NCBI GenBank assembly: GCA_031288745.1
Contig: JAITQT010000109.1
Span: 1-32,974, forward strand
Source: Deltaproteobacteria bacterium
GTDB taxonomy: Bacteria; Desulfobacterota; Desulfarculia; Adiutricales; Adiutricaceae
Reading direction: 5' to 3'
Length of the DNA: 32,974 nucleotides
The translations under genes and the position numbers were made by a program. A model generated the notes under the pieces. That model had not been told where the DNA came from and ran no database searches. It worked only from the letters and a program-made list of their open reading frames with translations. Every line of letters begins with the position of its first letter. The first letter of the stretch is position 1. Below are positions 12,149 to 32,974 of the stretch, piece by piece.

Positions 12149-12715
12149 TTAAGTGACTATATTATAGAGTCCCGGCTTTCTAGCCGGAGGTTTAGGCAAA
12201 TCCCTTTCTGGAAAGCCCAGACAAGCCGAGCCAATCACTCTGTAATCGTGGGGAAAGCCAAGGCTAGTTAAATAGGATCTAAAATCAGGCTCGTCAGCCG
12301 CGCTAGCCACCTGATTAATCCAGCAGCCGCCTAAGCCCACCACGTGGGCGGCCAAAAGCAGATAGCCCAAAACCAAGGCCCCGTCCTCCACCGGCCAATA
12401 AGAATCTTTTCTATGGGCCCCCACGATCACGAAGACCGGGGCAGTACCAAAATTTACGCTATAGGCTTTATTGGAGACTACTTCCTTATAAAGGTCAAAA
12501 CCAGGCTTCTGGACAGCCTCCCGAAGCTTTAGGGTGAACTCTGAGATCCTATCTAAGCCGATTACAGCCGTAGCGTGCCAGGCTTGCGTACCCCTGGCCG
12601 TGGGGGCGTAGCTAGCCGCATCCAACACCTCTTTTAAAAGCTCATCTGGCACTGAGAGTGGTTTAAAGACTCTTACGCTACGCCGCTCAACTAGCCATTT
12701 AAGATCTTTGTTCAT
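12149..12715 (-). CDS. nitroreductase family protein
   Basis: 188-aa ORF. The N-terminal RRSVRVF, SYAPTARGTQAWH and the overall length are typical of the NADH/FMN nitroreductase fold. Confidence 0.75.
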   Translation of the reverse strand: MNKDLKWLVERRSVRVFKPLSVPDELLKEVLDAASYAPTARGTQAWHATAVIGLDRISEFTLKLREAVQKPGFDLYKEVVSNKAYSVNFGTAPVFVIVGAHRKDSYWPVEDGALVLGYLLLAAHVVGLGGCWINQVASAADEPDFRSYLTSLGFPHDYRVIGSACLGFPERDLPKPPARKPGLYNIVT

Positions 12716-13101
12716 AATTAATACACCTCATTACTTTAAAATGTTAGCGCTCCTTACGAAGGGTTAAGCGGCCCTTTAAAGCATCTGCGCTTATTAGTCT
12801 AATCTCAACTTTATAATCCATAACCTAAAATAATCTATCATTTTTTTTACTTATTCGCCAATACCCTCATACGTTACCCTACCACAGCCTGGGTTGCTCC
12901 AAGCCACATTAGCCAACTTTGATAGAAGGAAGAAACGTTTTAAAAACTTAATCGCCTAAAAAATTAACCTTTCTAACAACCCTATCTCCCACCGCCTTGG
13001 GGGCCAAAGGGTTAAATAGACCTCGCTAGGTAAAAAAGTAAGGCTAAAGGCTTTTGATTTTAATACACCAAACCCGAGATAATAAAATTAAATGTTATTA
13101 T

Positions 13102-13211
13102 TGAGCGAAGCGCAAAAAGTCCCCTTTATCAGTCTTTAAATTTGTAACATAGTCTTATCACTAGTTAATTTTTTAGACTATTGTGCTTTTAAGAGGTTTT
13201 TGCGCTTCGAT
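13102..13211 (+). mobile_element. 110-bp MITE copy a
   Basis: Terminal inverted repeats GAGCGAAGCGCAAAAA / TTTTTGCGCTTCGATC. Flanked by a perfect 6-bp direct repeat ATTATT (13096-13101 and 13212-17). Confidence 0.8.
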
Positions 13212-13661
13212 CATTATTTTATTTTTTTATTCTTATCAAAGATAAATTTACTAGCCAACCTACTCGTAAGTTTCTTCGTTAACGATAGGGGCAGATTACA
13301 GGCTAATCGAATCTCACTAATTTTAGCACCGGCTACCAGAGCTGTCAAAGCTCCGGCCAGAGCGGCCTATGACCTAACCAGCGGTTTTCTCCCTCCTCAG
13401 GGGCAAAAGACCTAAATGATAGTCTCCAAAGCAGCTCCCATGGAGGTGATTTTGGCAGTTAAGACACCCGCTCCGACTACTCCCCAATGATACTACCGGT
13501 GATTTTAGCAGTGGTGGTCATCTCGAAAAATCGTTTGTTTATTAATCAAGGCCTTTGGTTTTATCATAATCCAGCACCTTGAGCTTTTAAGAAACAAGGC
13601 CTACCCCAGAAGATTGAAGAGCATTTAGGGCCACTCCATAAAAATATTGATAACCACACTT

Positions 13662-13771
13662 GATCGAAGCACAAAAAGTCACCTTTATGAGTCCTTAAAT
13701 TTGTAACAGGGCCTTATTACTAGTTAATTTTTTAGACTACTTTGCTTTTAAGGGGTTTTTGCGCTTCGATC
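13662..13771 (+). mobile_element. 110-bp MITE copy b (inside the IS110-family pseudogene)
   Basis: TIRs GATCGAAGCACAAAAA / TTTTTGCGCTTCGATC. Flanked by a perfect 6-bp direct repeat ACACTT (13656-61 and 13772-77). About 87% identical to copy a. Confidence 0.8.
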
Positions 13772-13819
13772 ACACTTAAGCCTAGGATAAGGTCCAAAAC
13801 CTACGAGCTATCAAGCCCC

Positions 13820-14548
13820 AACCATTACAAGCTCACAAACTCTTTATCATGGTAGGTTTTAACCTCTCACTGGGTTGCTGATAACATTTTTGGGACCAAC
13901 TGCCAAATGATTATCGCAGGACTAATTACGAAAAAAACCCGAATGAGACCTTAAGAATTCTACAGTTAGTTAGCGCCTTAAGGCTTCAAAACAATTAGTA
14001 TTATAAAGGCCCAAATAGGGAAATTGGCTGGTTAAGTCTGTGAAGATATTACAGAAATGTGTGAAAATAATCTCGTATTTACGAGCAAAATTGATACGCA
14101 TGAGCTAGGACTTGCACGTCGCATGATTAAGAGCGGCTTAGAGACTAAATTAGATCTTTTCCAGGCCATTAACTGAGTATCGTTCAAAGCCGCTCTGAGC
14201 CTTCTAGCTGAACTTAGCGATGATTGGTCGAATTTTCGTTGGGCTAATGCCTTGTTGAATTGGGGTAGAAAGAACTCGGGCCACAACGAGTTGACGGGTA
14301 AAAGAAAGAGTGGCCAAAAGTTAAAAGGCAATAAGCACCTAAGAAGGATTTTAGGCGAGATAGCCCAGCTGACCGCGAGAACTTAGTAGTATTTTAAACA
14401 AAAACTACAAAATCTAAAGCTAGGAGACGAGGCGACCAGAGGCTATTGAGCTGTTGGTCATAAAGTGCAGATAGCCGTTTATATCGTTCTACTAAAGGCA
14501 ATCCTTACCAAGACAATAAGGTTGAGTACGACGCTCTGGTAGCCAAGA
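13820..14548 (+). pseudogene. IS110-family (DEDD / Transposase_20 type) transposase pseudogene, C-terminal two thirds recognisable
   Basis: The frame from 14102 reads ..LFQAIN*VSFKAALSLLAELSDDWSNFRWANALLNWGRKNSGHNELTGKRKSGQKLKGNKHLRRILGEIAQLTART**YFKQKLQ..AVGHKVQIAVYIVLLKA. This has the IS110 hallmarks (LLAE.gD..rF, sG......KrGNkhLRr.L, A.ArKl...iy..Lk). In-frame stops lie at 14174, 14384, 14387 and 14447. Weaker frame-shifted similarity (GTNCQMIIAGLI, ETLRILQLVSALR) extends up to about 13820. Confidence 0.65.
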
Positions 14549-14792
14549 AAAATGCTTTGCTCTGGAGAAAGAACCTTAAGAAATAACATCTGGTCTCTTC
14601 TGAAAATAAATTTAGTAATTATAGAAGATAACTAACTTTATTAGGCTCAGATTAAGGCGCAGGCTAATAACCTAAGCTATGAACATTAAGTAGTCTACTC
14701 TGAATCGCCAGCAGTGGTAGCCATGGATAGTCTCAAAGCATCATTAAACTACTTTGGTAACGGGTTTTTTGGAGTTTTATCTTGGCCCACTT

Positions 14793-15108
14793 GTAACCGT
14801 TCACCAAGTCTTTTTTCCCCACGTTGCAGCTAGTAGCGACTTTCGAGTGGTAATTAAGTTTGATCGAAGCGCAAAAACCTCTTAAAAGCACAATAGTCTA
14901 AAAAATTAACTAGTAATTTGGCTATGTTATAAATTTAAGGATTGATAAAGGGGACTTTTTGCGCTGCGATCAACTTTGATTTAATGTTAAAATTACTAAG
15001 CTCCTATAGGGGGCTACATTGTTTCGGTTTGTGTCGTCCCTTTCAATAGGCTTGGCCCCGCAACGCTCTCTATTGTGAACGGGCCCTTAAACGTTCACAT
15101 TGGTGAAC
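14793..15108 (-). repeat. R-element copy 3 (carries a nested MITE and an internal deletion)
   Basis: The plus strand reads GTAACCGTTCACCAAGTCTTTTTTCCCCACGTTGCAGCTAGTAGCGACTTTCGAG.. then the MITE, then ..AATGTTAAAATTACTAAGCTCCTATAGGGGGCTACATTG..GTTCACATTGGTGAAC. The ends GTTCACCAA (14799-14807) and TTGGTGAAC (15100-15108) are perfectly complementary. Confidence 0.75.
14862..14971 (-). mobile_element. 110-bp MITE copy c (nested in R copy 3)
   Basis: TIRs GATCGAAGCGCAAAAA / TTTTTGCGCTGCGATC. The 6-bp flanks differ by one base (AAGTTT vs AACTTT). Confidence 0.8.
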
Positions 15109-15252
15109 TACACGCCCACTTTATCCATAGTTGAGGGATAGATTAGCTAACTATAAGTTTTTTCTATTTTTTCTTATCTATAGCTGAGTCATTTTTAGGG
15201 CCAACACTCTCAAAGCCGTGGAGGTTTGCTATGATTGTGCCGTGATACCAAG

Positions 15253-16875
15253 CTACTCGTAAGGTTCAGCCACAGGGTGATCGAAGCTTTGGATTAAAGG
15301 GACAGATGGGGCCTCGGGGGCCTTGACTTTAGGCTGAGCTTTAAAGGGGTCTAGGTTAATTTGCTCAATAGGCCACACTTGCGGCCACATTGGATGAGGC
15401 CTAATATTAGAGAGTCTTTTATCAATTAACATATCAAAGGTTTTTTGATACAACATGACGTAGGGCCGTTTTTCCAAAGCGTAAACGTTTAACCGCCTTA
15501 ATAAACTCTCTCTAGTCATATTATTTTGAGTCGAGAGGCCCTCTATCAGCTGGTCAACTTGAGAGTCGTTAAATCTGGCCGGATTTGATTTAATAGTGGC
15601 CCGCGAATCTAAAAACCCGCCTAGCCACATCTCGGGGCTTGGATACTCGGGCCGCCTAAAATCCAGTAACATATCCCAATCTCCCTTTTCCAAGATTCCC
15701 TGACCGTGAGCCCCACTAAGGGGGACTAACCTTACCGCTAGCCCGTGGGCAGATAGCTTAGAGGCTAGGACCTCCGCATCACTCCGCCCCGATGGGTCGT
15801 CGGCCTGGTAGACTAAATCTAGCGGTATCCGGGAGGGCCCTAAAGTAGAAAGTAACTGAACCGCTCTTTTTTCCAACTCGGCCGCCGAGGGGGGGGCCCC
15901 GACCGGTAGGCTTGGGGCTAAGCCGGCTGGGAAAAAACCGACCGGCTTTACTCTTTCCCCGCTAAGAGATAAAGCCGAAGCGGCTAAATCAGTAATTAAC
16001 TCTCTAGCCCCATCCATTTTTAGATAAGGCCTTAAGAGATTAAAAGCCAAAAATTTAGTCTCAAAAGATGTTACCTTAATTAATTCAAAGCGATTATCTA
16101 GCGGAGAAGTATATTGGGGCTGCCAAGCCAAGTGAGCCTGGTTTTCAATAAATAAGGCGTACCGTTTTTGTGGATCTTCGTTATAATAGAACTCAATTCG
16201 ATCGAGTTTGGGAATTACCTGGGCATCGGAGCGAATTTTTAACTTTATTAGTGTAGGTTCAACAGAATCGACCTCAAAGCCCCCAGAGCCTAAACTATGC
16301 TGGTCTAAATAGCCCGAGGGCCGGGCGGACAGAGAAGGACTAATCAAAGAAGCCATAGGCGAGGTTAGAGAGGCTAGAAAGGGGGGCCAAGGAGAATCTA
16401 GGCGGAATCTAAAAGTATGGGGCCCTACAATCTCAAAAAACTTTAGCCTCGGAAAATAAATGCTTCCGGTTTGGGTGCTCATTAAGCGATCAAAACTATA
16501 AAGAGCGGCGTAACTATCTAAGAGCGTTCCGTCTGGAAAACTTTGACCTTCCTTAAGGATAAAGGTATAGAGCAAACCATCTTCGGAGACTCTATAAGTG
16601 GCTGCGGCCGAATTTTTATTGTCGAGCACCGAACTTGCGGGCTCGAGATCAAATAGACGGCGATAGCAGGTCATGATCACGGGCCAGGCTGCGGGGTCAG
16701 GAGGGTAGCGCTGGGGGTCTAGGCTGACCGGGGCCTTAGGGTAGACCAGCCTTAAGGCATCGGCCCAAATTAAGTCTTTAGGGCTGAAAATCAAAAAAAG
16801 GAGTAAAAAAAAAAGCGCTCCCTTAGATGGCTTAAATTTGGTTTGAGCTTTGCTTATTAGTCGGCTATGGTCCAC
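15253..16875 (-). CDS. ABC transporter substrate-binding protein, family 5 (peptide/nickel type), orphan
   Basis: 540-aa ORF with a GTG start, an N-terminal hydrophobic signal-like segment (ALFFLLLFLIFSP) and family-5-like stretches (LDPQRY.., FELIKVTSFETKFLAFNL). No permease or ATPase genes are adjacent. Confidence 0.7.
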   Translation of the reverse strand: MDHSRLISKAQTKFKPSKGALFFLLLFLIFSPKDLIWADALRLVYPKAPVSLDPQRYPPDPAAWPVIMTCYRRLFDLEPASSVLDNKNSAAATYRVSEDGLLYTFILKEGQSFPDGTLLDSYAALYSFDRLMSTQTGSIYFPRLKFFEIVGPHTFRFRLDSPWPPFLASLTSPMASLISPSLSARPSGYLDQHSLGSGGFEVDSVEPTLIKLKIRSDAQVIPKLDRIEFYYNEDPQKRYALFIENQAHLAWQPQYTSPLDNRFELIKVTSFETKFLAFNLLRPYLKMDGARELITDLAASALSLSGERVKPVGFFPAGLAPSLPVGAPPSAAELEKRAVQLLSTLGPSRIPLDLVYQADDPSGRSDAEVLASKLSAHGLAVRLVPLSGAHGQGILEKGDWDMLLDFRRPEYPSPEMWLGGFLDSRATIKSNPARFNDSQVDQLIEGLSTQNNMTRESLLRRLNVYALEKRPYVMLYQKTFDMLIDKRLSNIRPHPMWPQVWPIEQINLDPFKAQPKVKAPEAPSVPLIQSFDHPVAEPYE

Positions 16876-20268: not shown

Positions 20269-20612
20269 AAAAAAAATTAAAATTTAGACTTTTTTCTTCG
20301 GGCAAATCCAAAAGCATTTTTCTATTATTTTAAAAAAAAATCGCTTTATTTAAACGATCATTTGTTCATCGCCCGATTGATCGGTTTGTGTAAAAAAACC
20401 AAGTTTTAAATTAAAATACGAAGATACGTATGGAACCTATTAATCCCTACTCTTTTCATGTTTTATTTTTTAACTTACGGGAACTAACACCATTCGACCA
20501 CACCATCGGCCCTCCACCTCCGAACGGCCCGAAATTACTCTCGCAGTTTTTTCGGACCATCTACCGCTTAGACTCCTCTTATCACCTCATTTGTCTTAAA
20601 AGGCGGCTCAAA

Positions 20613-20954
20613 ATGACAATAACTAAGGAAACCATCATCAGGAGAATCAGTGAAAAAACTGGTTTTAACCGCCAGGACTCCAAACTGGCTGTGGAAAAAC
20701 TCTTGGATATCATGTACAACACCCTCTCGGGCGGAGAAAACCTTTTAATTTCAGGGTTTGGTAAATTTAAAGTTCTCTCCAAGAACGCTCGCTTGGGCCG
20801 CAACCCCCACACCATGGAAGAGATTAAACTTCAGGCCAGAAAAGTCGTCACTTTCAAACCCTCTGAAACTCTTAGGCTAAAGACTAATCAGCACCCTATG
20901 TCCGAGCCCTTAGAATCGGAATCGGAAGATGATTTTGACTTTTTGTATAAATAA
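20613..20954 (+). CDS. ihfA: integration host factor alpha-like DNA-bending protein (HU/IHF family) with an acidic C-terminal tail
   Basis: The 113 aa from ATG 20613 contain the HU/IHF signature (GFGKFKVLSKNARLGRNPHTMEEIKLQARKVVTFKPSETL). The 61 codons upstream in the tracked ORF have no family similarity. The tail ESESEDDFDFLYK is extra. Confidence 0.8.
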   Translation: MTITKETIIRRISEKTGFNRQDSKLAVEKLLDIMYNTLSGGENLLISGFGKFKVLSKNARLGRNPHTMEEIKLQARKVVTFKPSETLRLKTNQHPMSEPLESESEDDFDFLYK

Positions 20955-21353: not shown

Positions 21354-21747
21354 GTAACCGTTCACCAAGTCTTTTTTCCACACGTTGCGGCTAGTAGCGA
21401 CTTTCGAGTTGTCATTAAGTTTTAGCATACCCTTAAGTTCTTAACATTAGTTCTTTTGAGGTTTCTACTTAGCTCTTTGCTCCAACCATATATTTTAACT
21501 TTAGTAATGTTGATCGAAGCGCAAATACCTCTTAAAAGTAAAATAGTCTAACAAATTAACTAGTAATAAGGACATATTACAAATTTAAGGACTGATAAAG
21601 GGGACTTTTTGCGCTTCGATCAATGTTAAAATTACTAAGCTCCTATAGGGGGCTACATTGCTGCAGTATGGGTCGTCCCTTTCAATAGGCTTAGCCCCGC
21701 AGCGTTCTCTCTTGTGAACGGGCCCTTAAACGTTCACATTTGTGAAC
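21354..21747 (-). repeat. R-element copy 4 (most complete copy; carries a nested MITE)
   Basis: Full 3' module (21354-21505, rc) and full 5' module including both GTTCAC/GTGAAC hairpins (21622-21747, rc). Interrupted only by the MITE at 21512-21621. Confidence 0.8.
21512..21621 (-). mobile_element. 110-bp MITE copy d (nested in R copy 4)
   Basis: TIRs GATCGAAGCGCAAATA / TTTTTGCGCTTCGATC. Perfect 6-bp TSD AATGTT (21506-11 and 21622-27). The uninterrupted R copy 2 has a single AACATT at the equivalent site (7801-7806). Confidence 0.85.
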
Positions 21748-21935: not shown

Positions 21936-22168
21936 GTTCACAAATTGTATTGAGAGGGACGACCCATACCACAACAATGTAGCCCCCTATAGGAACTTAG
22001 TAATTTTAAAATTTATCCCTGTTAAAATATATAGTTGTAGCAGAGAGCTAAGTAGAAACCTCAAAAGAACTAATGTTAAGATCTTAAAGGCATGCTAAAA
22101 CTTAATGACAACTCGAAAGTAGCTACCAGCCGCAACGTGGGGAAAAAAAGACTTGGTCGAACGGTTAC
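21936..22168 (+). repeat. R-element copy 5 (5' helix strand deleted)
   Basis: GTTCACAAATTGTATTGAGAGGGACGACCC..CAATGTAGCCCCCTATAGGAACTTAGTAATTTTAAAATT....CTAAGTAGAAACCTCAAAAGAACTAATGTTAAGATC..GACTTGGTCGAACGGTTAC. It ends 20 nt from the pilX-like stop codon, in convergent orientation. Confidence 0.7.
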
Positions 22169-22188: not shown

Positions 22189-22887
22189 CTACAAGACCTG
22201 ATCGACCGCGTAGAGGACCGTGATAAAAGTCTGAGGCCCTGAACTCTTCGCTTCATCATCAGAAACGTTAAAGAAATTTTGACCTCCACCACCTTCCGGG
22301 TCTTTCCCGCTGACGGTTATGACGAAATAGCGGGTCCCTAAAGAGCCAACAGTATTACTACCATTTATGTTGACTCCCTCAGCCGAGCCCACTCCAGAGG
22401 GTGCACCGGAAGCCGAATCATGAGCTAAATCGCGAGAAATCATAACCGTGCCCACCACCCGGTTTTGCGTATCCTTAACTACAATATCGGGATTATCAGT
22501 CCTACCTACGGCCAAATAACGCTCTTTAAGCGAAACCCTCTTCTTAGAAACGTCAGTTAAGAGATAGGCCAAATCATCATTGACCTCAATTTTATATCCG
22601 GTATGTGAAGAGTTATAATCAAGATGATCTCGCACGTCTTCCATGGTCCCGTTAGTCAGAACGGCAGCGGAACGAAGGGCCAACTGCATGACCGCGTCGG
22701 CGTGGTGGAAGGCTTTTTTCGACTGATGATAGTTGGACGAAGAGCCCAACTCCACTCGGGTGGCGAAAAGAACCCCGGCCCCCAAAATTACAACTAAGAG
22801 CATGATAACCAAAGTGGTAACTAAGATCATCCCCTCGGATTTCCCCGAAAAAGGCCCGGTTAACTTATTAGACGCTGAGGCCAACAT
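22189..22887 (-). CDS. pilX: PilX-like type IV pilus minor pilin
   Basis: Start moved to ATG 22887, which has a perfect AGGAGG (22894-99) 6 nt upstream. The N-terminal hydrophobic helix GMILVTTLVIMLLVVILGAGVLFATR resembles the PilX N-terminal domain. It is the last gene of the pseudopilin operon. Confidence 0.6.
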   Translation of the reverse strand: MLASASNKLTGPFSGKSEGMILVTTLVIMLLVVILGAGVLFATRVELGSSSNYHQSKKAFHHADAVMQLALRSAAVLTNGTMEDVRDHLDYNSSHTGYKIEVNDDLAYLLTDVSKKRVSLKERYLAVGRTDNPDIVVKDTQNRVVGTVMISRDLAHDSASGAPSGVGSAEGVNINGSNTVGSLGTRYFVITVSGKDPEGGGGQNFFNVSDDEAKSSGPQTFITVLYAVDQVL

Positions 22888-22951
22888 TTTATTCCTCCTA
22901 AACATAACATCACGACTTAGGCCAAAGATTAACCAAAGATCGTCCAACCCA

Positions 22952-23386
22952 TCAACTCTTAATTGGAACAATACTGCGATAAACCACAGGATTTGCTTTT
23001 GGCCAAGCGACCTTAACTTCTATCTCGTTGGTAAATTGAGTGGGGCTTTGGCGAACTAAAGTGACGCTGCGGGTATAATAGCGCCCTGCCTCATTGGTAG
23101 GGGAACCAGTACGGTCAAAATAATCTAACTTTTCACTAGGAAAAGAATCTGGAATGTAATTCCTAAACTCCTCTATCTTGCTCTCGGCCAAAAAGACAGC
23201 CAAAGTCTGTTGCTCAGCGATCGATCCGCTACGGTAAGAACTCTGCTGCATGACTAAGGCGGCTAGAAATCCAAATAGAACCACCGTGAGGGCCACCAAG
23301 GTTTCAATTAAGGTAAAACCCGGACGAGAGCGCACCGCCTGCGGCACCAATGAGCTATGGGGAGAGCGAATAGTTAAAGTGCTCAT
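22952..23386 (-). CDS. pilV: PilV-like type IV pilus minor pilin (prepilin-type N-terminal cleavage/methylation domain)
   Basis: RPG|FTLIETLVALTVVLFGFLAAL is the class III signal with Glu at +5. GGAGG at 23393-97 lies 6 nt before ATG 23386. The mature size of about 120 aa is typical of PilV/GspI. Confidence 0.7.
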   Translation of the reverse strand: MSTLTIRSPHSSLVPQAVRSRPGFTLIETLVALTVVLFGFLAALVMQQSSYRSGSIAEQQTLAVFLAESKIEEFRNYIPDSFPSEKLDYFDRTGSPTNEAGRYYTRSVTLVRQSPTQFTNEIEVKVAWPKANPVVYRSIVPIKS

Positions 23387-23449
23387 CAAAATCCTCCAAA
23401 AAAGCTTAGGGCAATAAATAAAACTGGCTCTAATTTATATAACTTAACC

Positions 23450-24118
23450 TTATATATTCTTTAAACGTATATGGCCCGTGCTATTAACTACGCTTAAAAC
23501 CCATCTGTTAGAATTACCTAGACCTCTGTTTTTAAAGATAATCTCTATTGGACAATAGGTAATGGCTTCGCCCCCAGGGGTAAAGATAACCACGAAACTA
23601 TCGCGGTTAAATCCATCAAGGCCGCTAACTCCATAAGTTCTGGGCCCCACGCCGTTTTTGGAGAAAAAACCATTAAAATAAGATTTATAGTAATTATATT
23701 GCGGTCTTATCTTTGCGGTATTACTTTGGTATTCTATCTCAGTACCCTCATTGAGAGTAAAGGAGGAGGTGGCGAAAGGGGACCAGCTTTTAATGGCCCC
23801 GCTGGAATTAAAAACGGCCATTTGAGCAAAAGACCGGCAGGGCTCGCTCCCATCGCTACCTCGGGTCTCGGGTGTGCAATCGACCAAAATCCTGACTGGC
23901 CGTTGATAATTAGCGGCTGCAGACCTGGCCCGCTTTAAGAGGTTGGTAACCGCATTAGCGTCGGTTTTAATGGCCCTTCTGGGCACAATGCTCAAATAAG
24001 TCGGAGTGAGTATAGCTAGTAACACACCTATGATCACTATAGCGACTATCATCTCGATCATGCTAAAGCCAGAGCGAAGGGCTCGAGCGTACGCATAAAA
24101 CGTTTTTATAATCTTCAT
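23450..24118 (-). CDS. FimT/FimU/GspH-like minor pilin
   Basis: RSG|FSMIEMIVAIVIIGVLLAIL is a prepilin signal with Glu at +5. AAGGAG lies 7 nt upstream of ATG 24118. 222 aa. Confidence 0.65.
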   Translation of the reverse strand: MKIIKTFYAYARALRSGFSMIEMIVAIVIIGVLLAILTPTYLSIVPRRAIKTDANAVTNLLKRARSAAANYQRPVRILVDCTPETRGSDGSEPCRSFAQMAVFNSSGAIKSWSPFATSSFTLNEGTEIEYQSNTAKIRPQYNYYKSYFNGFFSKNGVGPRTYGVSGLDGFNRDSFVVIFTPGGEAITYCPIEIIFKNRGLGNSNRWVLSVVNSTGHIRLKNI

Positions 24119-24151: not shown

Positions 24152-25273
24152 TTAATAGTTTCTAAGCTGAATCGTAGTTTCCAATAACCTTCTAACATAA
24201 TTATCCGGCCCTCCCACCACAGTGTGGTTCAGGGCTGGGATAGGCAGATGATTGCCTTTATAAGGATCTTCTCTAGGCGAGCGTGAAATCACAACTATCC
24301 TAACTGCCTTAACCGGCCGAGACAAAAGATCTTGGCCACTAAGATCGTGTACGTAGTTAGCCAAATTCGAAGGATCGTCATCGCCCAGACAAAAAGCAAC
24401 CTGAAAATCTTCAATATCCTCAGCCAGGATGTCGCCTTCGGCTTCGTCAGAGTCCATGACTAAAGTGTTGTCGGTAGTATTCACTCTAAAAGTATGGAGC
24501 CTAACCGACTTAACATTATAAACCAGAGAGCCAGCCCCAATCTCAGTCACCCCGTTAGGCAGAGTACCAGACGGAAGAGGCGCAATATCTATATCAGTCA
24601 AATTAGAGCCGTCACTTGTAGCTTGGACCAAAATCGGCGACCCGCTCGCCGGAACTAAGGCTAGATAATCGCCGCTTTTAAGCACTTCATCATCAAGACC
24701 AGCAGGAAAAGTCAAAACCTCTGATAACTTAAGGCTATCTGACGACGAGGTAAAGCCAGTCTCCAACATCCCTAAAGGGGCCGCAAAATCAGGGGCCAAA
24801 GAACAGATGGTCAAACTATCTGGGGCCTGACTTCCGTCGATACTAAAAATAGGTTTGACCCCAAAATCAGAGCCCGACTCATACTTAAACCAGCTGGAGC
24901 CGGAACCATCTTCATTCTTATTATAAACTTGTAGAAACTGATTCTGGTTTAGTCCTAGAAGGGAAAACCCATTGCCAGCCATGCGTAGATCACGGGAGAC
25001 ACCAGAAATACCCGAGCGCAGGTTAAGCATTTGCTCTAAAACAGATTCTTGCCGCATAAAGCTGCGAGAACTCGACGAATAAAGCATGAAGACCATAGAC
25101 ATTAATAAAGAACCCAAAAAGACGACGGTTAAGAGTTCTATTAAGGTCATAGCCGAACGACGCCGATTTAAGAGGGCCAGGGCCTTAAAAACTTGGGCCT
25201 TTAGCTGGCCAAGGGGCCTAAGGGTGTGCGGACCACATTGAGCCGCCGCTTGTTTTAATTTTATGTCGTTCAT
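24152..25273 (-). CDS. pilW: PilW-like minor pilin with an atypical long leader
   Basis: 373 aa. MTLIELLTVVFLGSLLMSMVF is a prepilin-type helix with Glu at +5, but it is preceded by 41 residues and has Ala rather than Gly at -1. The size and position fit PilW. Confidence 0.6.
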   Translation of the reverse strand: MNDIKLKQAAAQCGPHTLRPLGQLKAQVFKALALLNRRRSAMTLIELLTVVFLGSLLMSMVFMLYSSSSRSFMRQESVLEQMLNLRSGISGVSRDLRMAGNGFSLLGLNQNQFLQVYNKNEDGSGSSWFKYESGSDFGVKPIFSIDGSQAPDSLTICSLAPDFAAPLGMLETGFTSSSDSLKLSEVLTFPAGLDDEVLKSGDYLALVPASGSPILVQATSDGSNLTDIDIAPLPSGTLPNGVTEIGAGSLVYNVKSVRLHTFRVNTTDNTLVMDSDEAEGDILAEDIEDFQVAFCLGDDDPSNLANYVHDLSGQDLLSRPVKAVRIVVISRSPREDPYKGNHLPIPALNHTVVGGPDNYVRRLLETTIQLRNY

Positions 25274-25316: not shown

Positions 25317-26336
25317 TCAATAAAGGACGACTTTTAAGCGATTGGTTCGCTCATGGCCCGCGACGAAAACCATAGCCTCACGATCATTCCAGTTAACCTC
25401 TAAATCAACAGAGCGCTCTTTGGAGTCCAGGCAGGTGGCCTTTAAGCTAAAACCTAGCCAAGGTTTATCGCTTTTTAATCTCAGTGAGGTTATTTGAGTA
25501 CAGGCTGTGGGGTCCAAAACAGCCGCGACGTATTTATAAACCCGCGATTCGCTTCCAGTGTAACCGATATTATAGTCGAGATTTTTGGCGTTAATGGTCT
25601 GGTTCTGCATAACCTTTAAATCAGAGGCCAGACTGTTTTCATCATAAACAACCTCGGTGGCTTTCGCCGCCTGGGGGCTTTCGCCCATATTGCGAGCCGT
25701 TCGCCAAGAAAAATAAAAGATAGCGGCCTCGACCGCGAAGACGACAACCAGACAGCCCACAAGAACTATGCCCCAGTTTCGCTTTGAAAGAGGGCTTAGT
25801 TGATTAAGAGGGGTAACTTCAGCCCAGGCCACGGCCCGATACGCACCGGAAGAATCAAGGCCTCCAACGAATTGGGTACCGTGGCGAATCTTTGGTTTTT
25901 TTTCTTGAGAGGGCTCGGTATTTAAGATATCGTCAATATTGATTTTGACAACATAGCGCTCCCCGCAATTCGGGCAAGTCTCCCAGGCCCCCTCCTGAGG
26001 GATTTTGGAGACGGGTATTTTATAACGCCCCAGACACTTAGGGCAGACGACAACTCGAAAGGTCTCCTTAGCCTTGGGCTTGGTTTTGCTATTAGGCTTA
26101 AGCCGCTCGACCCGGGCGACCCTTTTAACTTTAATAAGGCCGCCCTCGTCTTTTCCTAAAATAAGCTCCGAGCGGCAAACGCTACACTCGGCTGCAGTTT
26201 CGCCTAAAGGGAAAAGGGTGGGGTCAATGTGGCACAGAGAGCTGCAGATCGGACAAACCAACCGATTCGCATCCTCCGTAGATTGGGCCGAAGCCTTAAG
26301 AGCGGCTTCGGCCTCTATCTTTTCTACCGCGCTCAA
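25317..26336 (-). CDS. double zinc-ribbon, single-pass membrane protein of unknown function
   Basis: 339 aa with two CxxC..CxxC units (CPICSSLC..CSVCRSEL and CPKCLGRY..CPNCGERY), a TM segment (WGIVLVGCLVVVFAVEAAIFYFSW) and a C-terminal domain of about 125 aa. The TTG start overlaps the TGA stop of the pilY1-like gene. Confidence 0.65.
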   Translation of the reverse strand: MSAVEKIEAEAALKASAQSTEDANRLVCPICSSLCHIDPTLFPLGETAAECSVCRSELILGKDEGGLIKVKRVARVERLKPNSKTKPKAKETFRVVVCPKCLGRYKIPVSKIPQEGAWETCPNCGERYVVKINIDDILNTEPSQEKKPKIRHGTQFVGGLDSSGAYRAVAWAEVTPLNQLSPLSKRNWGIVLVGCLVVVFAVEAAIFYFSWRTARNMGESPQAAKATEVVYDENSLASDLKVMQNQTINAKNLDYNIGYTGSESRVYKYVAAVLDPTACTQITSLRLKSDKPWLGFSLKATCLDSKERSVDLEVNWNDREAMVFVAGHERTNRLKVVLY

Positions 26337-29300
26337 TCAGTTATTCCAATGTTAGAGAAATCCAAAACTTCTCTCCAGGATTTAACACCGCCTTTAGAAA
26401 AATTTCCGTCAGGCAGGTTAAAGTGCTCGTCAGAACCAGATTGGTTAATATAAGATATCTTAGCGTGCTTGCCGCCGCCACCAGTTCCTCCGTTGGAACT
26501 CGAGCTACCGCTAAGCCCGCCGCTAGAAGTTGAAGTATCGGTGGTGCCAGTGATAACCAGAGTCGGAGCCGAGGTTTTACCCTCGAAGGAAGCCATGTGA
26601 TCAGAGACCGGAGGCTTTCCAGTTATGGGGTGAGATTGTTGAATACTCTCTTGGAAATTATTAATCGAAGAAAAGGAGGTTGCCCCAAAATCTGGTTTGG
26701 GTAAACCAGTAAAGGTATCGAGCAACAAGGCAAAACTACGGCCGGCAGCACCGCAAGAGACAGAATCGGGCAAAAAGGAGGTATAGGCCATAATCGAGCC
26801 GGTGGGGCCGTAGGGTACCAGAGCCGCCTGATCGACCACCATCTCAACGCTAAGCCCCTTCCACCAATCAGAGTTTTCACTACCTGGTTTAAAGGGATTG
26901 TCAACCTCAGAGTTATCGACATAAATTTCCGAATTAGTCTTTAAGGCCCTTCTATAACCGCCATAATTATCAGAGATGACATTGGATAACTTTTCGTAAC
27001 TATTCAGCTCTTCCCCGCCGCTATTTATGGGCATCACCGCGCCATTGGCGTTAAGGGTTTGGACTTCACCTTCGGGATAAACCAAAATGTTGGAAACGTC
27101 CATTAAGTTATTCTCGGAGACCTCATTAAAAATTAGTTCGCCTTGAGAGTTAATTGGCTCTTTAATACCGTAAATATAATTTACGTGATTTAGACGACAC
27201 TCTTTAGTATCCCCAGCCCCTTCGCACAGGTGGCTATCATCATTTGAATAGTACCTACCGGTTCCAAAAACAACCCACAAACGGCCCTTGGCATCATAGG
27301 TTGCGTTGACTGCGGCGGTCACAGGTCTGTCAGTCTCAAAGAAAGGCTTAAAGTTTTGTTGCCAGGAATTTGGATTGATCGCATTCCCGCTAGAATTTGT
27401 CATATTAAGTCTAAAAACCGCCCCCTTGTCTAAATAGCCTTTGTTGCCGTATTTAGAACTACCGCATCTGTCCTGCGGCCAAGAGAGATAGGCATCTATA
27501 TCGTTTTCTTTTTCTAGACATAATAAAGAGCTAGTATCTTTGTCGGGGGCCGACTGAACAAGGCTAAAGTAGGCCAGGGCGTTAGACCAGCTAACCGAGT
27601 CGCCTTCTCTAATAACCGTGGAGGCTGGAGCCCTCAGGACTTGAGTCTGGGCTACGAAGGACTTGGGCCTATTAGTTTCTAAAATCCTGAATTCAGAGCT
27701 AGGCCCATTAATAGCGTCAAAGACGAAAACCTTAGCCGATTGGTTACTATAACCTTTATAGGCATTAGGCCCCTTATCAGGGGAGGGAACGGTTATTTTT
27801 TTGGCCGGATCATAGTTGTCGTAGGTCGGGCCACTACCAATTAAAGCGTACCATTTATCTCCTCCACTGGTGTTTCGCACCACAGTAGGCCTGGCCACCA
27901 CTAGCCCCAACTGAGGATGGCTAAAGCGCCACAAAAGGATGGGGTCAGTGTCTGGATTGGTCACGTCAAGGGCGAAAACCTCGGAATACGAGTAGCTCGG
28001 AGGATTAGACTTAGTTTCGATAGCCCTGCCTCCGAAACGGAGACTACCAATGATAAGGGTGCGCCAAGCGTCCGAGCCCTTAGAGGGGTCTTTAACCTCA
28101 ACCACCGTGGGGGTTAAATCGAGGTAATAGCTATGGGCGTAATCTTGTCGAGCCAGCCACTGTAAATGGGGTAGGATCGACTGAGGTATAAAGGACCAGA
28201 TCTCGCTCCCAATTTTAGTTAGTGGATCATCTTTGTAACCATTTTGACCCTCTCTGAGAGAATATGGTTTGCCAAGATTGACCGCATGAAGCATGCCGTC
28301 GTTAGCCCCCACCACCGCTAGGTGACGCCTCTTAGCGTAATTATTACGATACTGGGCGTAGGAACCGTCGCTATATTGATTATCGTAGGATGAAAATGGG
28401 GAACCTACAATGATGGGCTGAGAGTTAATTATATCTCCCAAACGACAAGTGATGGGTGTACCGGGCGATAAATCTGGCCAAGGTGATAAAGTCTGACGAG
28501 AGCGAAATTCGCCATTATCCCAACCTAAGACGTAATCAATGAGATTTTTGGCCGTTAGGGCGTCACTCTGGAGCAGATACGGGGCTAGGGCCGAGGCTTT
28601 ATCGGGTGAAAAGATATTATTGTTCCCAAAAGTAGTTGGAGTAGACCCGTTTAAGAGCTCATGATAGAAATAGACCCGCCGACCTTTGGAAGCTAAAGCA
28701 GTCAATGCTCTTGCTTTAGTCACTTCTTCATAAGAGTTAAGGCGAGCCAGGGTTTTACTCAAATCCCAGATAGTGTAAATTTTCTGCAAAGGCACGTATT
28801 GCAGACGCGCATTGCGATCGGGGAGGTTTTTGCCATTTTGGTCAGGAAAGACCCTAGCCACCGACTTTATATCGGCTTCATCCCTTACCTTCGAGCAGGC
28901 TAAGGTATCGGCTGCAGTGGGGAGCCTATTACAATCGACAAACTCGACGATCCAATCGCCCTTGGAACTAGGTCCACGAGAGGAATTAGCATCTCCAGCG
29001 AACCCGCAATCAAGATCTAATATACCGTTGCCATTGGTATCTTCACGCAAATTACCCCACAAATCCACAAACAACGCGTAAGTGCCGCCAAGCCACTTTA
29101 TTTCCGGGTAATCTGGAGAGTTTACCGGCGTATGCACCGTCTGAAAATAAGTGCGCACAGTCACGCCGCCGCCTAAGACCTGATTAACGGAAGCGGAAGT
29201 GGCCGTACCCACGTTTAGGGTACTCATGATCCTCTCAAAGGCTTCTGAAAGTTTTTCTTTGAGCTGACTTAGGTTGGCAGCGTAGAAATAATTATCGGGA

Positions 29301-32300
29301 ATCCCGTCGCCGTTTGGAGCCGGCAAGATATCGTATTCGTCTTTTTCCGGTTTGCCGTTGTGGTTTTCATCGTTAAACCCACCATATTTAGCCGCTAACC
29401 ATAAAGGATCGGGTAAATAGTTGGGAGGCGCAGGGGCCTGACCAGGGGCCGGGAACCTAAAAAATCTAGTTGCGGTTAGTGGAAGCCTCGCTGAACCGCA
29501 GCTCGGCACAGCCAAATTATGGGCCTTAACGTCAAAATCATTTACAAAACCAGGCATCTGAAGATTCCCGGCCTTACCGTCTTTAAAAAGGACTGGGTTA
29601 CTATCGGCGGCCGTAAAATTTTGAGGTTCAATCTTAATCGTTCCGGCCCGGTAGCAGGTGGGCGGCGTGTTAAGAGAATGGGCTATGGTCATCAAACCCT
29701 TCTCTTCACCGGAAGTCATATGGGACGTCAAGCCCTCATTTAAGATAGTCATGGGGCTACCGCCCATGTAATTGTGCTCGTTTTGGATTTCCAAATAGAC
29801 CCCTTCGGCGTTACCTAAGACGCGGCTGGGGTTATCTTTTTTACTCTCTGGGAAGTTAAGCCCCCCGTGGAGATAGTAGCCGATGTTAATCGGCATATTG
29901 CGATCGGTGTTGTCAATCTTTTCATAGAGAGAATAGACAAAGACGGCCACGCCTATGGCGTCTTTCATTTCTTCGGGTTTACCAATCTTTTTGTAGATTC
30001 GGCCGGGTTCTCCAATATAGCCGTAGACGTCCATGACCTCTTCGTAGCCTAAGTCGGTAAAGGGGCGATCGATAAAAAGGCTCGAGGTCTCATCGGGCAC
30101 GAAATCCTGATTTTTCTCTTTAGTTATGTCGTTTGAAGAGTAGTCATAAAAATTTGAGGCCCCCGGTAGCTTTCTCACCTCAGCCTGTCTAGCCGAGTTT
30201 CCGCCAGTGTCATCATAACCGCCATACTGGGAATAAACCGATCTAGCGTAGCTCTGCATCAAGGTTGGATCGGGGTCAGTTCTGTGACTAAGTATGCCTG
30301 TGGGCCTATGAAAATAGGCTGGTATCTGTGACCAGCGCTTGGGCATGTAAGCGGCAATATGGTAATTTTTAGGCCGTTCACTAGAATAGATGTAGTTGGG
30401 TCTAGAAGCGTGATCCCAGCTTTTATAGACCCATTCCCGATGGCGCTTAAAAGGGGCCGCAGCGTAGCGGCCGTCAGCGAAATCATTTAATATTTTCTTA
30501 GCTATCTGTCTATCGGCCGCGCTACCGCAACCGGTTATTTTATCGCGGTTCTTATCATTACACCTTGTGGTGTCGATAATATGTTCGAAAATTTGATAAT
30601 TATACTTCTTAGAATATTTTTCTTGCTTATAATAGACATAAGCCGTATCTCTTTCATCATCTCTAGATGGATAGCCCTCTTTATATTTATGATCTTGTTC
30701 GTAGCGAAAACTTTCCTTATGAGGCATATTGCTATCTGGATCGCACTCGCCCTGATAGCATTCGCGAATAAGATCAAAATAATATCGAACCGGGGCGTCT
30801 AACTGATAATCGTTACCCTCGCCCTCTAAGCGGCCGGTAAACCCAGCGAAAAGGGCCCCACTGTAGACCCTCCCCTCGTCGTCAGCTCGCCACTGAATGA
30901 CGTTGGTAGCAAAAGGACCGACATACTGGATGCCGTAGGGCTTGTTGTTGCCGTCCTTACAAAACCTAGTGTCTCCGTCGTTATTTCCGCAGGGGTAGCT
31001 CACGCTCATGGCCACAGGGCTAATTGAAATGACTTGACCATTGGCCGCGAGTTTGATTTCTGGAAAGATGGTAGGTAAGGCCACCGCGAAGGTCTGGACC
31101 TTGTTGCCAGAGCCATCGAAATCGTGGGTGTTACCATAATAGGCCGCTGCGGCCACGGCGTAGGTCCCGTAGGTTTGCGGGGCCCCAGGGCAAATACCCC
31201 TCACTTGGGCGAGAGAAGTAATCTTTCTTGGAATACAAAGATTCTCGTCGCCATCTGAAGGAGGCTGCCTGGAAACTTTACCTTCCGTTTTAGCTCCAGC
31301 AGTTCCAGAGTTGGTATTGGCGATATAGTAATATTGACCGCTAAAGCCCTCTAGCTTAGTGATGACGTTAAGATAGGCGCTCATGTTAAAGGACTTACTA
31401 AGGCCCTCGGTATTTACGAATCTATCACCGTCAGCATAATTTAGATTCAGAGTCGGAATACTACCCGCCCCTTCGCGCAAGGCGTGGGGAGAGCCGGGCA
31501 GCATATCTCCGTCGTGGCTAGTGGTGGTCGAACTTAAGATAAGAATAACTGGCTTTAGGCAATCGCCAGCGTTGGCAAATAGCGGAGAATTCCAAGAATC
31601 GAATGAAGATGAGCCTAAACGAGGCAGATCCACGCTCTCCTCACTTTGCATCAAAGAAGAGGAAGGATAGACGCTATAGGTAGCGGTAGTAGTATTTTTC
31701 GCAAAATACAAAAGCGCGGCATAGACCATCTCTCCCATGGGATTTCCAAAATTGCTCTCCATGGGATCGCGCCAGCCGATTCTGTATTTTTCAAACGTCG
31801 CGTCAACCTTATCGCGTTTATCAGATAAAGGTTTCAGACGAGCTTTGGTAACCTGAGTTATGCTATCGAACATCAGGAAAATATTGTTTTTAGACGTTCC
31901 CTTATAAGTGCCGTCAGGGTTAACCTGGTTTTTAATCGAGCCGACATTATGCCTCAGCCAGCCCGCATCCCAACGGTTAACATCATTAAAGGCACCAGTG
32001 AAAAGACCAAATAAGGCCTGATCCATTTCGGCGTATTTCTGAAGTAGACCAGTGGGCTTAAAGTAATCGCCGTAACGCTGACAATAGTCGCCCTTTTCTA
32101 TTAAAGCATCCTCGGGTATATAATCGGCCTTACTTGGCTTTGAAACTCCGCTTTTTCCCACAGAATAATCAAGGCGCTCGGTAAAGTTATGAACTTCCTT
32201 TTTGGTTAACGGCCTACAGGCCTCAACCACGATTTCTAGTTCAGTAAGCTTATAATCTTCGGCAAAGGAATTGAGGACGTAGGTTAAGGGAGTGTACTGC

Positions 32301-32974
32301 TGACGGTATTTAGGTGGATAATAGGCGTTAAAAGACCTAAAGCCCTCGTGATTGGTGACGTCTTCCTTCTGACGCATAAACCAGATGCCGTCGATAATAT
32401 AGAGCTTTTTGTCAGCCCGGCCGTAACTATTTAGTCGCCGGTACTTTCCGGCCCAGCGATCGGGGTTAATAGGCGTGTATTTACGCGTATCGTAATAAGG
32501 GGAGCCCTCGTTATAATCAAGCCAAAAATATTGGGTAAAATCATCGTAGCTCCAGGCCCCAGCGTTTTCTGGGATATCTTCAGCCGTAATATAGGTTAAA
32601 CCCGGCAGATCAACCACTCTCTTGCCGCCGTAAAGGACCTGACGGACCACATCAATACGCGAACTAGTCATCCAATTGAGCCAGTTTCCGCTCCAAACCC
32701 TTACATTGGCGTTTATGGCACCAGTTTTCATATTTTTACCGTAACGTTCTAGCGTTTCCCCTCCCGTCACCAAATCTTTGACCTTGCAAATGCCGGTCTT
32801 TGATCTAGGTGCCCTAAAATTAGGACGGGCGTTTTCCGAATCGTCGTGGCCGTTAGCAATGGCCGTGTGAAGACGAGTAGAGTCGGGATTACCAGAGGTC
32901 GCATCTTCCTTATCTTCAATACTAGGTCCTAGCCGGACAAAGTGACCTCTTTTGGTAGCGTCTTCGCCAGTAAG
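26333..32974 (-). CDS. pilY1: giant PilY1-like type IV pilus tip adhesin, 5'-truncated by the window edge
   Basis: The frame stays open for 67 codons upstream of the tracked TTG (32773) to position 32974, so the protein has at least 2213 aa. PilY1 C-terminal domain signatures: LGDIINSQPIIVG, VVGANDGMLHAVN, WSFIPQSILPHL, WRTLIIGSLRFGGRA, VFALDVTNP, LWVVFGTGRYY. vWA-like N-terminal part: NPMGEMVYAALLYFA, KPVILILSSTTTSHDGD, LWLAAKYGGFND..NGDGIPDNYF. Confidence 0.85.
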   Translation of the reverse strand, partial: LTGEDATKRGHFVRLGPSIEDKEDATSGNPDSTRLHTAIANGHDDSENARPNFRAPRSKTGICKVKDLVTGGETLERYGKNMKTGAINANVRVWSGNWLNWMTSSRIDVVRQVLYGGKRVVDLPGLTYITAEDIPENAGAWSYDDFTQYFWLDYNEGSPYYDTRKYTPINPDRWAGKYRRLNSYGRADKKLYIIDGIWFMRQKEDVTNHEGFRSFNAYYPPKYRQQYTPLTYVLNSFAEDYKLTELEIVVEACRPLTKKEVHNFTERLDYSVGKSGVSKPSKADYIPEDALIEKGDYCQRYGDYFKPTGLLQKYAEMDQALFGLFTGAFNDVNRWDAGWLRHNVGSIKNQVNPDGTYKGTSKNNIFLMFDSITQVTKARLKPLSDKRDKVDATFEKYRIGWRDPMESNFGNPMGEMVYAALLYFAKNTTTATYSVYPSSSLMQSEESVDLPRLGSSSFDSWNSPLFANAGDCLKPVILILSSTTTSHDGDMLPGSPHALREGAGSIPTLNLNYADGDRFVNTEGLSKSFNMSAYLNVITKLEGFSGQYYYIANTNSGTAGAKTEGKVSRQPPSDGDENLCIPRKITSLAQVRGICPGAPQTYGTYAVAAAAYYGNTHDFDGSGNKVQTFAVALPTIFPEIKLAANGQVISISPVAMSVSYPCGNNDGDTRFCKDGNNKPYGIQYVGPFATNVIQWRADDEGRVYSGALFAGFTGRLEGEGNDYQLDAPVRYYFDLIRECYQGECDPDSNMPHKESFRYEQDHKYKEGYPSRDDERDTAYVYYKQEKYSKKYNYQIFEHIIDTTRCNDKNRDKITGCGSAADRQIAKKILNDFADGRYAAAPFKRHREWVYKSWDHASRPNYIYSSERPKNYHIAAYMPKRWSQIPAYFHRPTGILSHRTDPDPTLMQSYARSVYSQYGGYDDTGGNSARQAEVRKLPGASNFYDYSSNDITKEKNQDFVPDETSSLFIDRPFTDLGYEEVMDVYGYIGEPGRIYKKIGKPEEMKDAIGVAVFVYSLYEKIDNTDRNMPINIGYYLHGGLNFPESKKDNPSRVLGNAEGVYLEIQNEHNYMGGSPMTILNEGLTSHMTSGEEKGLMTIAHSLNTPPTCYRAGTIKIEPQNFTAADSNPVLFKDGKAGNLQMPGFVNDFDVKAHNLAVPSCGSARLPLTATRFFRFPAPGQAPAPPNYLPDPLWLAAKYGGFNDENHNGKPEKDEYDILPAPNGDGIPDNYFYAANLSQLKEKLSEAFERIMSTLNVGTATSASVNQVLGGGVTVRTYFQTVHTPVNSPDYPEIKWLGGTYALFVDLWGNLREDTNGNGILDLDCGFAGDANSSRGPSSKGDWIVEFVDCNRLPTAADTLACSKVRDEADIKSVARVFPDQNGKNLPDRNARLQYVPLQKIYTIWDLSKTLARLNSYEEVTKARALTALASKGRRVYFYHELLNGSTPTTFGNNNIFSPDKASALAPYLLQSDALTAKNLIDYVLGWDNGEFRSRQTLSPWPDLSPGTPITCRLGDIINSQPIIVGSPFSSYDNQYSDGSYAQYRNNYAKRRHLAVVGANDGMLHAVNLGKPYSLREGQNGYKDDPLTKIGSEIWSFIPQSILPHLQWLARQDYAHSYYLDLTPTVVEVKDPSKGSDAWRTLIIGSLRFGGRAIETKSNPPSYSYSEVFALDVTNPDTDPILLWRFSHPQLGLVVARPTVVRNTSGGDKWYALIGSGPTYDNYDPAKKITVPSPDKGPNAYKGYSNQSAKVFVFDAINGPSSEFRILETNRPKSFVAQTQVLRAPASTVIREGDSVSWSNALAYFSLVQSAPDKDTSSLLCLEKENDIDAYLSWPQDRCGSSKYGNKGYLDKGAVFRLNMTNSSGNAINPNSWQQNFKPFFETDRPVTAAVNATYDAKGRLWVVFGTGRYYSNDDSHLCEGAGDTKECRLNHVNYIYGIKEPINSQGELIFNEVSENNLMDVSNILVYPEGEVQTLNANGAVMPINSGGEELNSYEKLSNVISDNYGGYRRALKTNSEIYVDNSEVDNPFKPGSENSDWWKGLSVEMVVDQAALVPYGPTGSIMAYTSFLPDSVSCGAAGRSFALLLDTFTGLPKPDFGATSFSSINNFQESIQQSHPITGKPPVSDHMASFEGKTSAPTLVITGTTDTSTSSGGLSGSSSSNGGTGGGGKHAKISYINQSGSDEHFNLPDGNFSKGGVKSWREVLDFSNIGITD

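Follow-up and report, generated by a model that had tools for sequence, protein, structure and literature searches.

A giant PilY1 of lineage-typical length with an orphan insertion in its head, encoded on a deltaproteobacterial contig

PilY1 proteins, least understood in their N-terminal parts, decide what type IV pili stick to and how cells sense a surface. The window analysed here is the entire 32,974-bp metagenome contig JAITQT010000109.1 (P0001) of a Deltaproteobacteria bacterium (assembly GCA_031288745.1), and one of its ends cuts a giant pilY1 gene on the minus strand. The protein encoded by this gene is a true PilY1, and its frame is one genuine gene whose size is normal for a small clade of uncultured Deltaproteobacteria or Adiutrix-type bacteria. 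The extra bulk comes chiefly from an orphan insertion at a single hotspot, together with loop growth, in a head modelled as one compact unit and with no recognisable adhesin modules added.

Described PilY1 proteins and the present locus

Pseudomonas aeruginosa PilY1 (PA4554, 1161 aa) is the closest characterized protein. It shares with the giant PilY1 a C-terminal beta-propeller that is homologous over its entire length, and both are encoded with minor pilins of the fimU, pilV, pilW and pilX types. Orthologues of the giant PilY1 also carry signal-peptide-like N-termini. The differences are substantial: the giant protein is about twice as long, loop insertions add about 190 aa to its propeller, an RGD motif is absent from the 2213 aa encoded in the window, and vWA (von Willebrand factor type A) similarity is undetectable in its head. 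The operons differ as well, pilY1 being the first gene here and the fifth in P. aeruginosa, with a gene for a zinc-ribbon membrane protein in place of pilY2/pilE. Three calcium motifs of PilY1 proteins have been published, namely Dx[DN]xDGxxD (motif 1), DxDxNxxxD (motif 2) and Dx[DN]xDxxxxxx[DE] (motif 3), and whole PilY1 clades without calcium motifs are reported in the same work (PMC13190605). Published models further propose that PilX and PilY1 associate by beta-strand complementation, and place the N-terminal PilY1 domains distally, at the pilus tip (PMC13190605 and work cited therein).

Extended, Cys-rich PilY1 clades have already been described from Myxococcota (PMC13190605). Like Myxococcus xanthus PilY1.1-1.3 and clades 1.5-1.7 of that survey, the PilY1s compared here show lineage-wise growth of the N-terminal part next to a conserved propeller, several pilY1/minor-pilin clusters per genome, many cysteines (23 in the partial giant protein), and a cluster-specific accessory gene, comparable to TfcP of M. 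xanthus cluster 1. Unlike in Myxococcota, no DUF4114 or SMART-type vWFA domain was detected, and the extra length comes as an orphan insertion at one hotspot. Zinc ribbons and a transmembrane helix mark the accessory protein, which is not a cytochrome c, and the lineage is Thermodesulfobacteriota, Adiutricales-like.

A single gene of lineage-typical length

The gene and the regions of its product are as follows.
26333-32974, minus strand: 5'-truncated pilY1, 2213 codons plus stop, collinear with 14 orthologues of 2213-2342 aa at 100% coverage.
30755-32974, minus strand: conserved N-terminal head (aa 1-740), common to ordinary PilY1s of 1300-1870 aa (BLASTP map, AlphaFold2 (AF2)).
29495-30742, minus strand: insert of about 416 aa (aa 745-1160), restricted to the clade, in the head hotspot (BLASTP map, profile search).
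28568-29494, minus strand: family-wide conserved head-closing segment and neck (aa 1161-1469; orthologues, family consensus).
26336-28567, minus strand: PilY1 C-terminal beta-propeller (aa ~1470-2213; about 740 aa long, the P. aeruginosa domain measuring about 550 aa; PF05567, 3HX6 profile, AF2).

The frame runs from nt 32974 to a stop codon at 26333-26335 and comprises 2213 sense codons with no internal stop, a length that would arise by chance with a probability of about 1e-49, as computed from base composition. Since the window is the whole contig, the 5' end of pilY1 lies outside the sequence, and the TTG at 32773 is merely the fallback start of the gene caller. The first-pass annotation had noted the lack of a stop between this codon and position 32974 and had placed the true start beyond the window, and the open frame and the orthologue alignment agree with it on both counts. 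Its description of a giant PilY1-like protein of at least 2213 aa that runs off the edge likewise holds for frame, location and family assignment.

Among 5.8 billion proteins searched, at least 14 were full-length relatives; they are 2213-2342 aa long, show 52-62% identity and cover 99-100% of the query each. Alignment with 14 full-length orthologues indicates that 88-124 residues are missing from the N-terminus, typically about 117, so that the intact protein would measure about 2330 aa. The N-terminus was deduced from the orthologues in this way because the only other contig carrying the neighbouring gene, a 5.1-kb Logan contig (L001), reaches just the last 299 pilY1 codons. The orthologues begin with a hydrophobic signal-peptide-like stretch followed by DYY.QPPL..KPAILM.LSKD..MFAPAY..ADxDGDGxxD.GFNP..Y.G.FDPYSCY, which is the characteristic PilY1 start; the missing ~117 codons are thus predicted to hold a signal peptide and the first calcium-type DxDGDGxxD loop.

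The length had been taken as unusual. It is in fact standard in the lineage, as the 2213-2342 aa of the orthologues demonstrate, and PilY1-like proteins above 2000 aa occur in other clades too (P0029, 2120 aa; P0031, 2073 aa; P0080, 2233 aa; P0074, 2485 aa). The accompanying remark that well-studied PilY1 proteins are roughly half this length is borne out by the P. aeruginosa protein. The practical value is modest and includes the correction of an impression of anomalous size.

Could the frame be an artefact that stems from mis-assembly, from two or more genes fused by a frameshift, or from a chimera in the contig? Such an origin might be considered for a gene of a metagenome contig that is cut by the contig end and that encodes, at aa 2142-2168, a Ser/Gly/Thr tract with no counterpart in the orthologues. 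The orthologues come from independent assemblies, however, and are collinear with the giant PilY1 from end to end without a break. L001 is 100% identical to the window over the last 299 pilY1 codons and the five downstream genes. Conservation is even along the gene, with 35-75% identity in every 50-aa bin, the insert included and the Ser/Gly/Thr tract as the sole exception, and both halves of the protein were observed to fold confidently in AF2. The collinear orthologues and the identical 3' end exclude an assembly error or gene fusion, and an artefact of any of these kinds is extremely improbable. The GC content of pilY1 (0.47-0.49) matches that of the remainder of the contig, on which ordinary chromosomal genes are present, namely argD-like, OTCase, L-aspartate-oxidase-like flavoprotein, PBP, serS, nitroreductase, SBP_bac_5 and tetratricopeptide repeat (TPR) protein genes.

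Membership in the PilY1 family is established by the C-terminal third, where canonical signatures had been expected and were found. PF05567 matches aa 1512-1720 (nt ~27815-28441) with E = 2.8e-14 and 53 bits against a cutoff of 28.1, covering profile positions 1-213 of 411 only. A family profile searched against the PDB matched 3HX6, the C-terminal domain of P. aeruginosa PilY1, with E = 1.1e-107 over chain residues 19-566; the homology extends in the giant PilY1 from aa ~1476 to the C-terminus, from LGDIINS via GANDGMLHA to the terminal WR motif. 3HX6 was found by the family profile alone, a single-sequence phmmer search of the PDB giving no match, and NCBIfam holds no family for the giant protein. 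The AF2 model of aa 1230-2213 (model B) has a mean predicted local distance difference test score (pLDDT) of 88.3 and a predicted template modelling score (pTM) of 0.89. Foldseek retrieved generic beta-propellers for this model (sialidase, semaphorin, CPSF160) with low template modelling (TM) scores, which fit a propeller with many loop insertions; 3HX6 was not among the top 50 hits, and this search supports the fold class alone.

Loop insertions are present in the propeller, and a loop with two conserved cysteines (aa 1817-1837) occupies the place of the P. aeruginosa Ca2+ site. The protein ends in a conserved tail, GGVKSWREVLDF (aa 2195-2206), with a nearly invariant Trp and a pLDDT below 50 in the monomer model. 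The Ser/Gly/Thr tract that had been reported near the C-terminus, TGTTDTSTSSGGLSGSSSSNGGTGGGG (aa 2142-2168; nt 26471-26551, minus strand), is present there, and it is specific to the window sequence, the orthologues being gapped at this point. It is disordered in the model (pLDDT < 50), and one orthologue subclade has a different Gly/Ser/Asp-rich insertion about 15 residues further on. This region is a variable disordered loop shortly before the conserved tail.

The head and its clade-restricted insert

Where does the surplus length reside? BLASTP comparisons with progressively shorter relatives showed aa 1-740 and ~1160-2213 to be common to ordinary PilY1s, and aa ~740-1160 to align within the clade only. 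The shared head includes the blocks WSGNWLNW..SRIDVVRQVLYGG (aa 94-117), GNPMGEMVYAALLYF (aa 409-424) and KPVILILSS..DGD (aa 474-490), bears the precomputed annotation PF28373 PilY1_homolog_dom, and is modelled with pLDDT mostly 75-95; no local Pfam match was obtained for aa 1-740 at E <= 5. The head-closing and neck segment contains LWLAAKYGGF and a long helix, with pLDDT 88-97 in model B. Between these conserved parts lies the hotspot, the length of which was measured between two conserved anchors in 68 relatives.
Ordinary PilY1s: 50-140 aa.
Proteins of ~2000 aa: 218-297 aa (about 240 in the sister clade).
The clade of the window: 412-473 aa.

Compared with the 1461-aa PilY1 P0038, the surplus amounts to about 870 aa, of which about 360 fall in the hotspot, about 200 elsewhere in the head and about 285 in the neck and propeller loops. 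In this clade the head has probably been enlarged stepwise at one hotspot (from 50-140 through about 240 to 412-473 aa) and by loop growth. Sister PilY1 clades from the same MAG (metagenome-assembled genome) lineage are the ~2000-aa Ca. Adiutrix type (P0020/P0021) and the ~1800-aa paralogues (P0022-P0028). These are 31-37% identical to the giant PilY1 in head and propeller and have the same four minor-pilin genes at the locus. They differ in their hotspots (about 240 or about 135 aa against 412-473) and in that the minor-pilin genes precede pilY1 there and follow it here. The LBP92 and LBT38 genomes each encode two PilY1s, one of ~2300 aa and one of ~1800 aa, with a separate set of minor pilins for either.

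When 1.84 billion representative proteins were searched by HMMER with a profile built solely from the insert, only 11 matched, every one a PilY1 belonging either to this clade or to the sister clade of ~2000 aa; with the latter just three short islands are shared (profile positions ~100-122, ~221-291 and ~348-381). Pfam yielded no match to the insert at E <= 5. Within the clade its conservation equals that of the remaining protein, with a mean column identity of 59% and many invariant blocks (among them RYAAAPFKRHREWVY, GYEEVMDVYGYIGEPG, EIQNEHNYMGG and LNTPPTCYRAG), indicating that the insert is under purifying selection. Among 185,579 species-representative genomes the insert occurs at 16 loci, all in MAGs named Deltaproteobacteria bacterium, with isolates coded Pcl387, Nc350, Cd354, Gx485, Ct408, Im510 and Kf353; a weak match was found in Ca. 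Adiutrix sp., a genus placed in Thermodesulfobacteriota, Desulfarculia, Adiutricales. From the affiliation with Adiutrix and the style of the isolate names, we take these genomes to be of termite-gut origin, for which the literature on Adiutrix pili and on the isolate codes provided no confirmation.

One of these MAGs, Gx485_bin207, contains two separate insert-bearing giant pilY1 genes (L012 and L016). No zinc-ribbon or minor-pilin gene was found downstream of either by tblastn at E <= 1e-5. Additional orphan paralogues are one possible explanation, contamination of the bin another.

The AF2 model of the head (model A, aa 61-1260, 1200 aa) has a pLDDT of 81.4 and a pTM of 0.86; the latter argues for a single compact head and not a string of modules. 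Foldseek searches with this model gave no significant neighbour, the best E being 2.3 in the PDB and 1.1 in the BFVD viral library. The first-pass annotation had suggested that the extra mass represents added modules for adhesion or sensing at the tip of the pilus. What stands of this proposal is that the extra mass lies in the part that published models put distally; no recognisable adhesin, lectin or sensor domain was found, and the surplus consists of loop growth and a single orphan insertion, not of appended modules. The locus would thus illustrate a way in which a tip protein grows, by repeated accretion at one hotspot in a compact head and not by acquisition of standard adhesin domains. 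Residues 745-1160 constitute a defined, well-conserved orphan region for attachment studies in Adiutricales-like symbionts.

The vWA-like strands and helices that had been described in the N-terminal part went undetected in every search made for them. A vWA domain is not supported: no VWA Pfam family was found in the protein, its segments (E <= 5), an orthologue or six shorter relatives. The family profile retrieved no vWA chain from the PDB, nor did Foldseek yield a significant neighbour. Alignment with hhalign against four classical vWA domains gave a probability of 0.25%, in a weak test with hand-entered templates. The only occurrence of the DxSxS signature of the metal ion-dependent adhesion site (MIDAS) is a chance one in the C-terminal low-complexity Ser/Gly/Thr tract. 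The alternating beta and alpha elements of the head model are compatible with a heavily interrupted Rossmann-like core.

The three calcium-loop-like motifs that had been listed all exist and are conserved in the orthologues, and two of them fit relaxed EF-hand-like patterns: a 12-residue loop, DENHNGKPEKDE, at aa 1202-1213 (nt 29336-29371), and a 9-residue loop, DTNGNGILD, at aa 1312-1320 (nt 29015-29041). The third, NGDGIPDNYF (aa 1221-1230), fits no calcium pattern, and the strict motifs 1, 2 and 3 are all absent from the 2213 aa; a strict motif 1 (DHDGDGxxD) sits in the N-terminal part that lies outside the window. A canonical calcium site cannot be read into the propeller either, as the P. 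aeruginosa site DNNSDGVAD (D851-D859) is not conserved and is replaced by the longer Cys-Cys loop. The EF-hand-like propeller site (motif 1) is common, but not universal, in the PilY1 family, and since clades lacking calcium motifs are known, its absence does not exclude membership.

An enlarged head of this kind might be enzymatic or an effector, e.g., with hydrolase activity towards the surface of the host, of protists or of lignocellulose, and would then be delivered at the tip or released and would not primarily be an adhesin. The head is large, compact and globular, and the invariant polar and aromatic blocks of the insert (EIQNEHNYMGG, RHREWVY, DVYGYIGEPG) are under strong constraint; in addition, the closest relatives all come from the apparent termite-gut genomes. 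However, an enzymatic head is quite improbable in view of the lack of a Pfam match at E <= 5, of a structural neighbour in the PDB or BFVD, of a homologue outside PilY1 proteins, and of a recognisable catalytic motif.

The operon and the pilus tip

Five genes follow pilY1 on the same strand, separated by -4, 43, 33, 60 and -20 nt.
25317-26336, minus strand: zinc-ribbon/transmembrane protein gene, 339 aa, overlapping the pilY1 stop by 4 nt (PF13717, E = 2.5e-09).
24152-25273, minus strand: pilW-like minor pilin (PF16074, E = 1.4e-12, and N_methyl).
23450-24118, minus strand: fimU/gspH-like minor pilin (GFSMIE prepilin motif, N_methyl).
22952-23389, minus strand: pilV-like minor pilin (TIGR02523, E = 3.3e-08, below the curated cutoff; GFTLIE prepilin motif, N_methyl).
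22189-22971, minus strand: pilX-like minor pilin (PF14341 PilX_N, E = 2.1e-06).

The start of the pilX-like gene is probably internal to this frame, the gene caller giving 232 aa. The order pilY1, zinc-ribbon gene, pilW, fimU-like gene, pilV and pilX was found in all nine distinct orthologous loci that extend far enough. Minor-pilin genes of the FimU, PilV, PilW and PilX types are thus clustered with pilY1, as in described loci, in a non-canonical order.

The best explanation, to which we assign a probability of about 0.8, is that this gene is the first of a six-gene operon and encodes a Sec-exported PilY1 of about 2330 aa that docks onto minor pilins at the tip of a type IVa pilus with its head turned outward. 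By analogy with characterized PilY1/PilC proteins, the propeller and the tail GGVKSWREVLDF would dock onto the four minor pilins encoded downstream. The complex would prime assembly of the pilus and then sit at its tip, and the N-terminal head of about 1250 aa would form the distal part that contacts a surface or ligand. The EF-hand-like loops at aa 1202 and 1312, together with the DxDGDGxxD loop of the missing N-terminus, probably bind Ca2+ and would rigidify the head-neck junction, and the P. aeruginosa-type Ca2+ switch of the propeller may have been replaced by the probably disulfide-bonded Cys-Cys loop.

Several observations weigh against this explanation. Only relaxed patterns are fitted by the calcium motifs, and the AF2 confidence for the insert derives from about 18 sequences, with some stretches at pLDDT 50-70. 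As neither an adhesin nor a lectin or vWA domain could be recognised in the head by Pfam, PDB profile, Foldseek and hhalign searches, its adhesive role is proposed from its position alone. The remaining points concern the filament: no gene for a major pilin, secretin, ATPase or PilMNOP that would mark the filament type was found in the 33-kb window, and the minor pilins also score weakly against the GspH, GspI and GspK models of the type II secretion system (T2SS).

These last points bear on the possibility that the operon serves another type IV filament, for instance a pseudopilus like that of the T2SS, a pilus for DNA uptake or a filament linked to secretion, in which the giant PilY1-like protein would be a periplasmic or outer-membrane plug or cargo adaptor and not a tip adhesin. 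Weak scores were also obtained against ComG models, pilY1 heads a non-canonical W-U-V-X order, the zinc-ribbon membrane protein stands in place of PilE, and localisations of PilY1 outside the pilus have been reported (PMC13190605). The NCBIfam scores in question are far below their curated cutoffs, however, whereas the PilW and PilX_N Pfam matches pass theirs. PilY1-type propellers are a hallmark of type IVa pili, and the same genomes have additional pilY1/minor-pilin clusters, as does M. xanthus, in which such clusters provide alternative tips for one pilus (PMC13190605). Another filament is accordingly unlikely, and a type IVa pilus tip is the preferred assignment.

The locus also points to a lineage-specific partner of the giant PilY1. 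The 339-aa protein contains two CxxC..CxxC zinc ribbons, predicted to be cytoplasmic, one transmembrane helix (aa ~188-210) and a C-terminal domain of about 130 aa that matches no family. Its gene always comes directly after pilY1 in the clade of the window and likewise in the ~2000-aa P0020 and 2073-aa P0031 types, two further PilY1 clades within this lineage (the P0022 contig ends at pilY1); instances lie at 14987-16123 of L002, 14159-14953 of L004 and 9753-10568 of L022. The canonical loci L023 and L024 lack the gene, and in other phyla such loci have pilE or unrelated genes at this position. The protein evolves faster than PilY1 (24-40% against 50-68% identity) and may be a lineage-specific pilus accessory factor, for which its gene is a candidate.

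A bolder combination is rather unlikely: the insert would have a new fold and confer a particular ligand specificity on the tip in the apparent termite-gut habitat, and the zinc-ribbon/transmembrane protein would be a previously unrecognised accessory factor. If this were true, the ligand could be, for example, flagellate protists, chitin or lignocellulose, and the zinc-ribbon protein would replace PilE/PilY2 and couple the export or state of PilY1 to the cytoplasm through its zinc-ribbon domain.

Beside the P0031-type pilY1/zinc-ribbon pair of L022, a type I-C CRISPR-Cas module (Cas3, Cas5d, Csd1) was observed about 3 kb downstream, at 12634-16646. In the window itself, a multi-copy repeat of about 130-320 nt is present in direct and inverted copies with 87-94% identity (13091-13218, 13652-13779, 14793-15108, 21354-21747 and 21948-22148). 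It occupies two non-coding stretches of low GC content (0.37-0.40), of which one lies directly 3' of the last minor-pilin gene, and may be a remnant of an insertion sequence or resemble a miniature inverted-repeat transposable element. Several copies lie in a region of about 2.5 kb between the nitroreductase and SBP_bac_5 genes (12716-15252), which has a GC content of 0.39 and no convincing open reading frame (ORF). No tRNA or Rfam family was found anywhere in the window. Finally, an ORF at 20430-20954 on the plus strand encodes a DNA-binding sequence of IHF/HU-like appearance (MTITKETIIRRISEKTGF...GFGKFKV...), which was identified only by eye; the true start of this ORF is probably an internal ATG.

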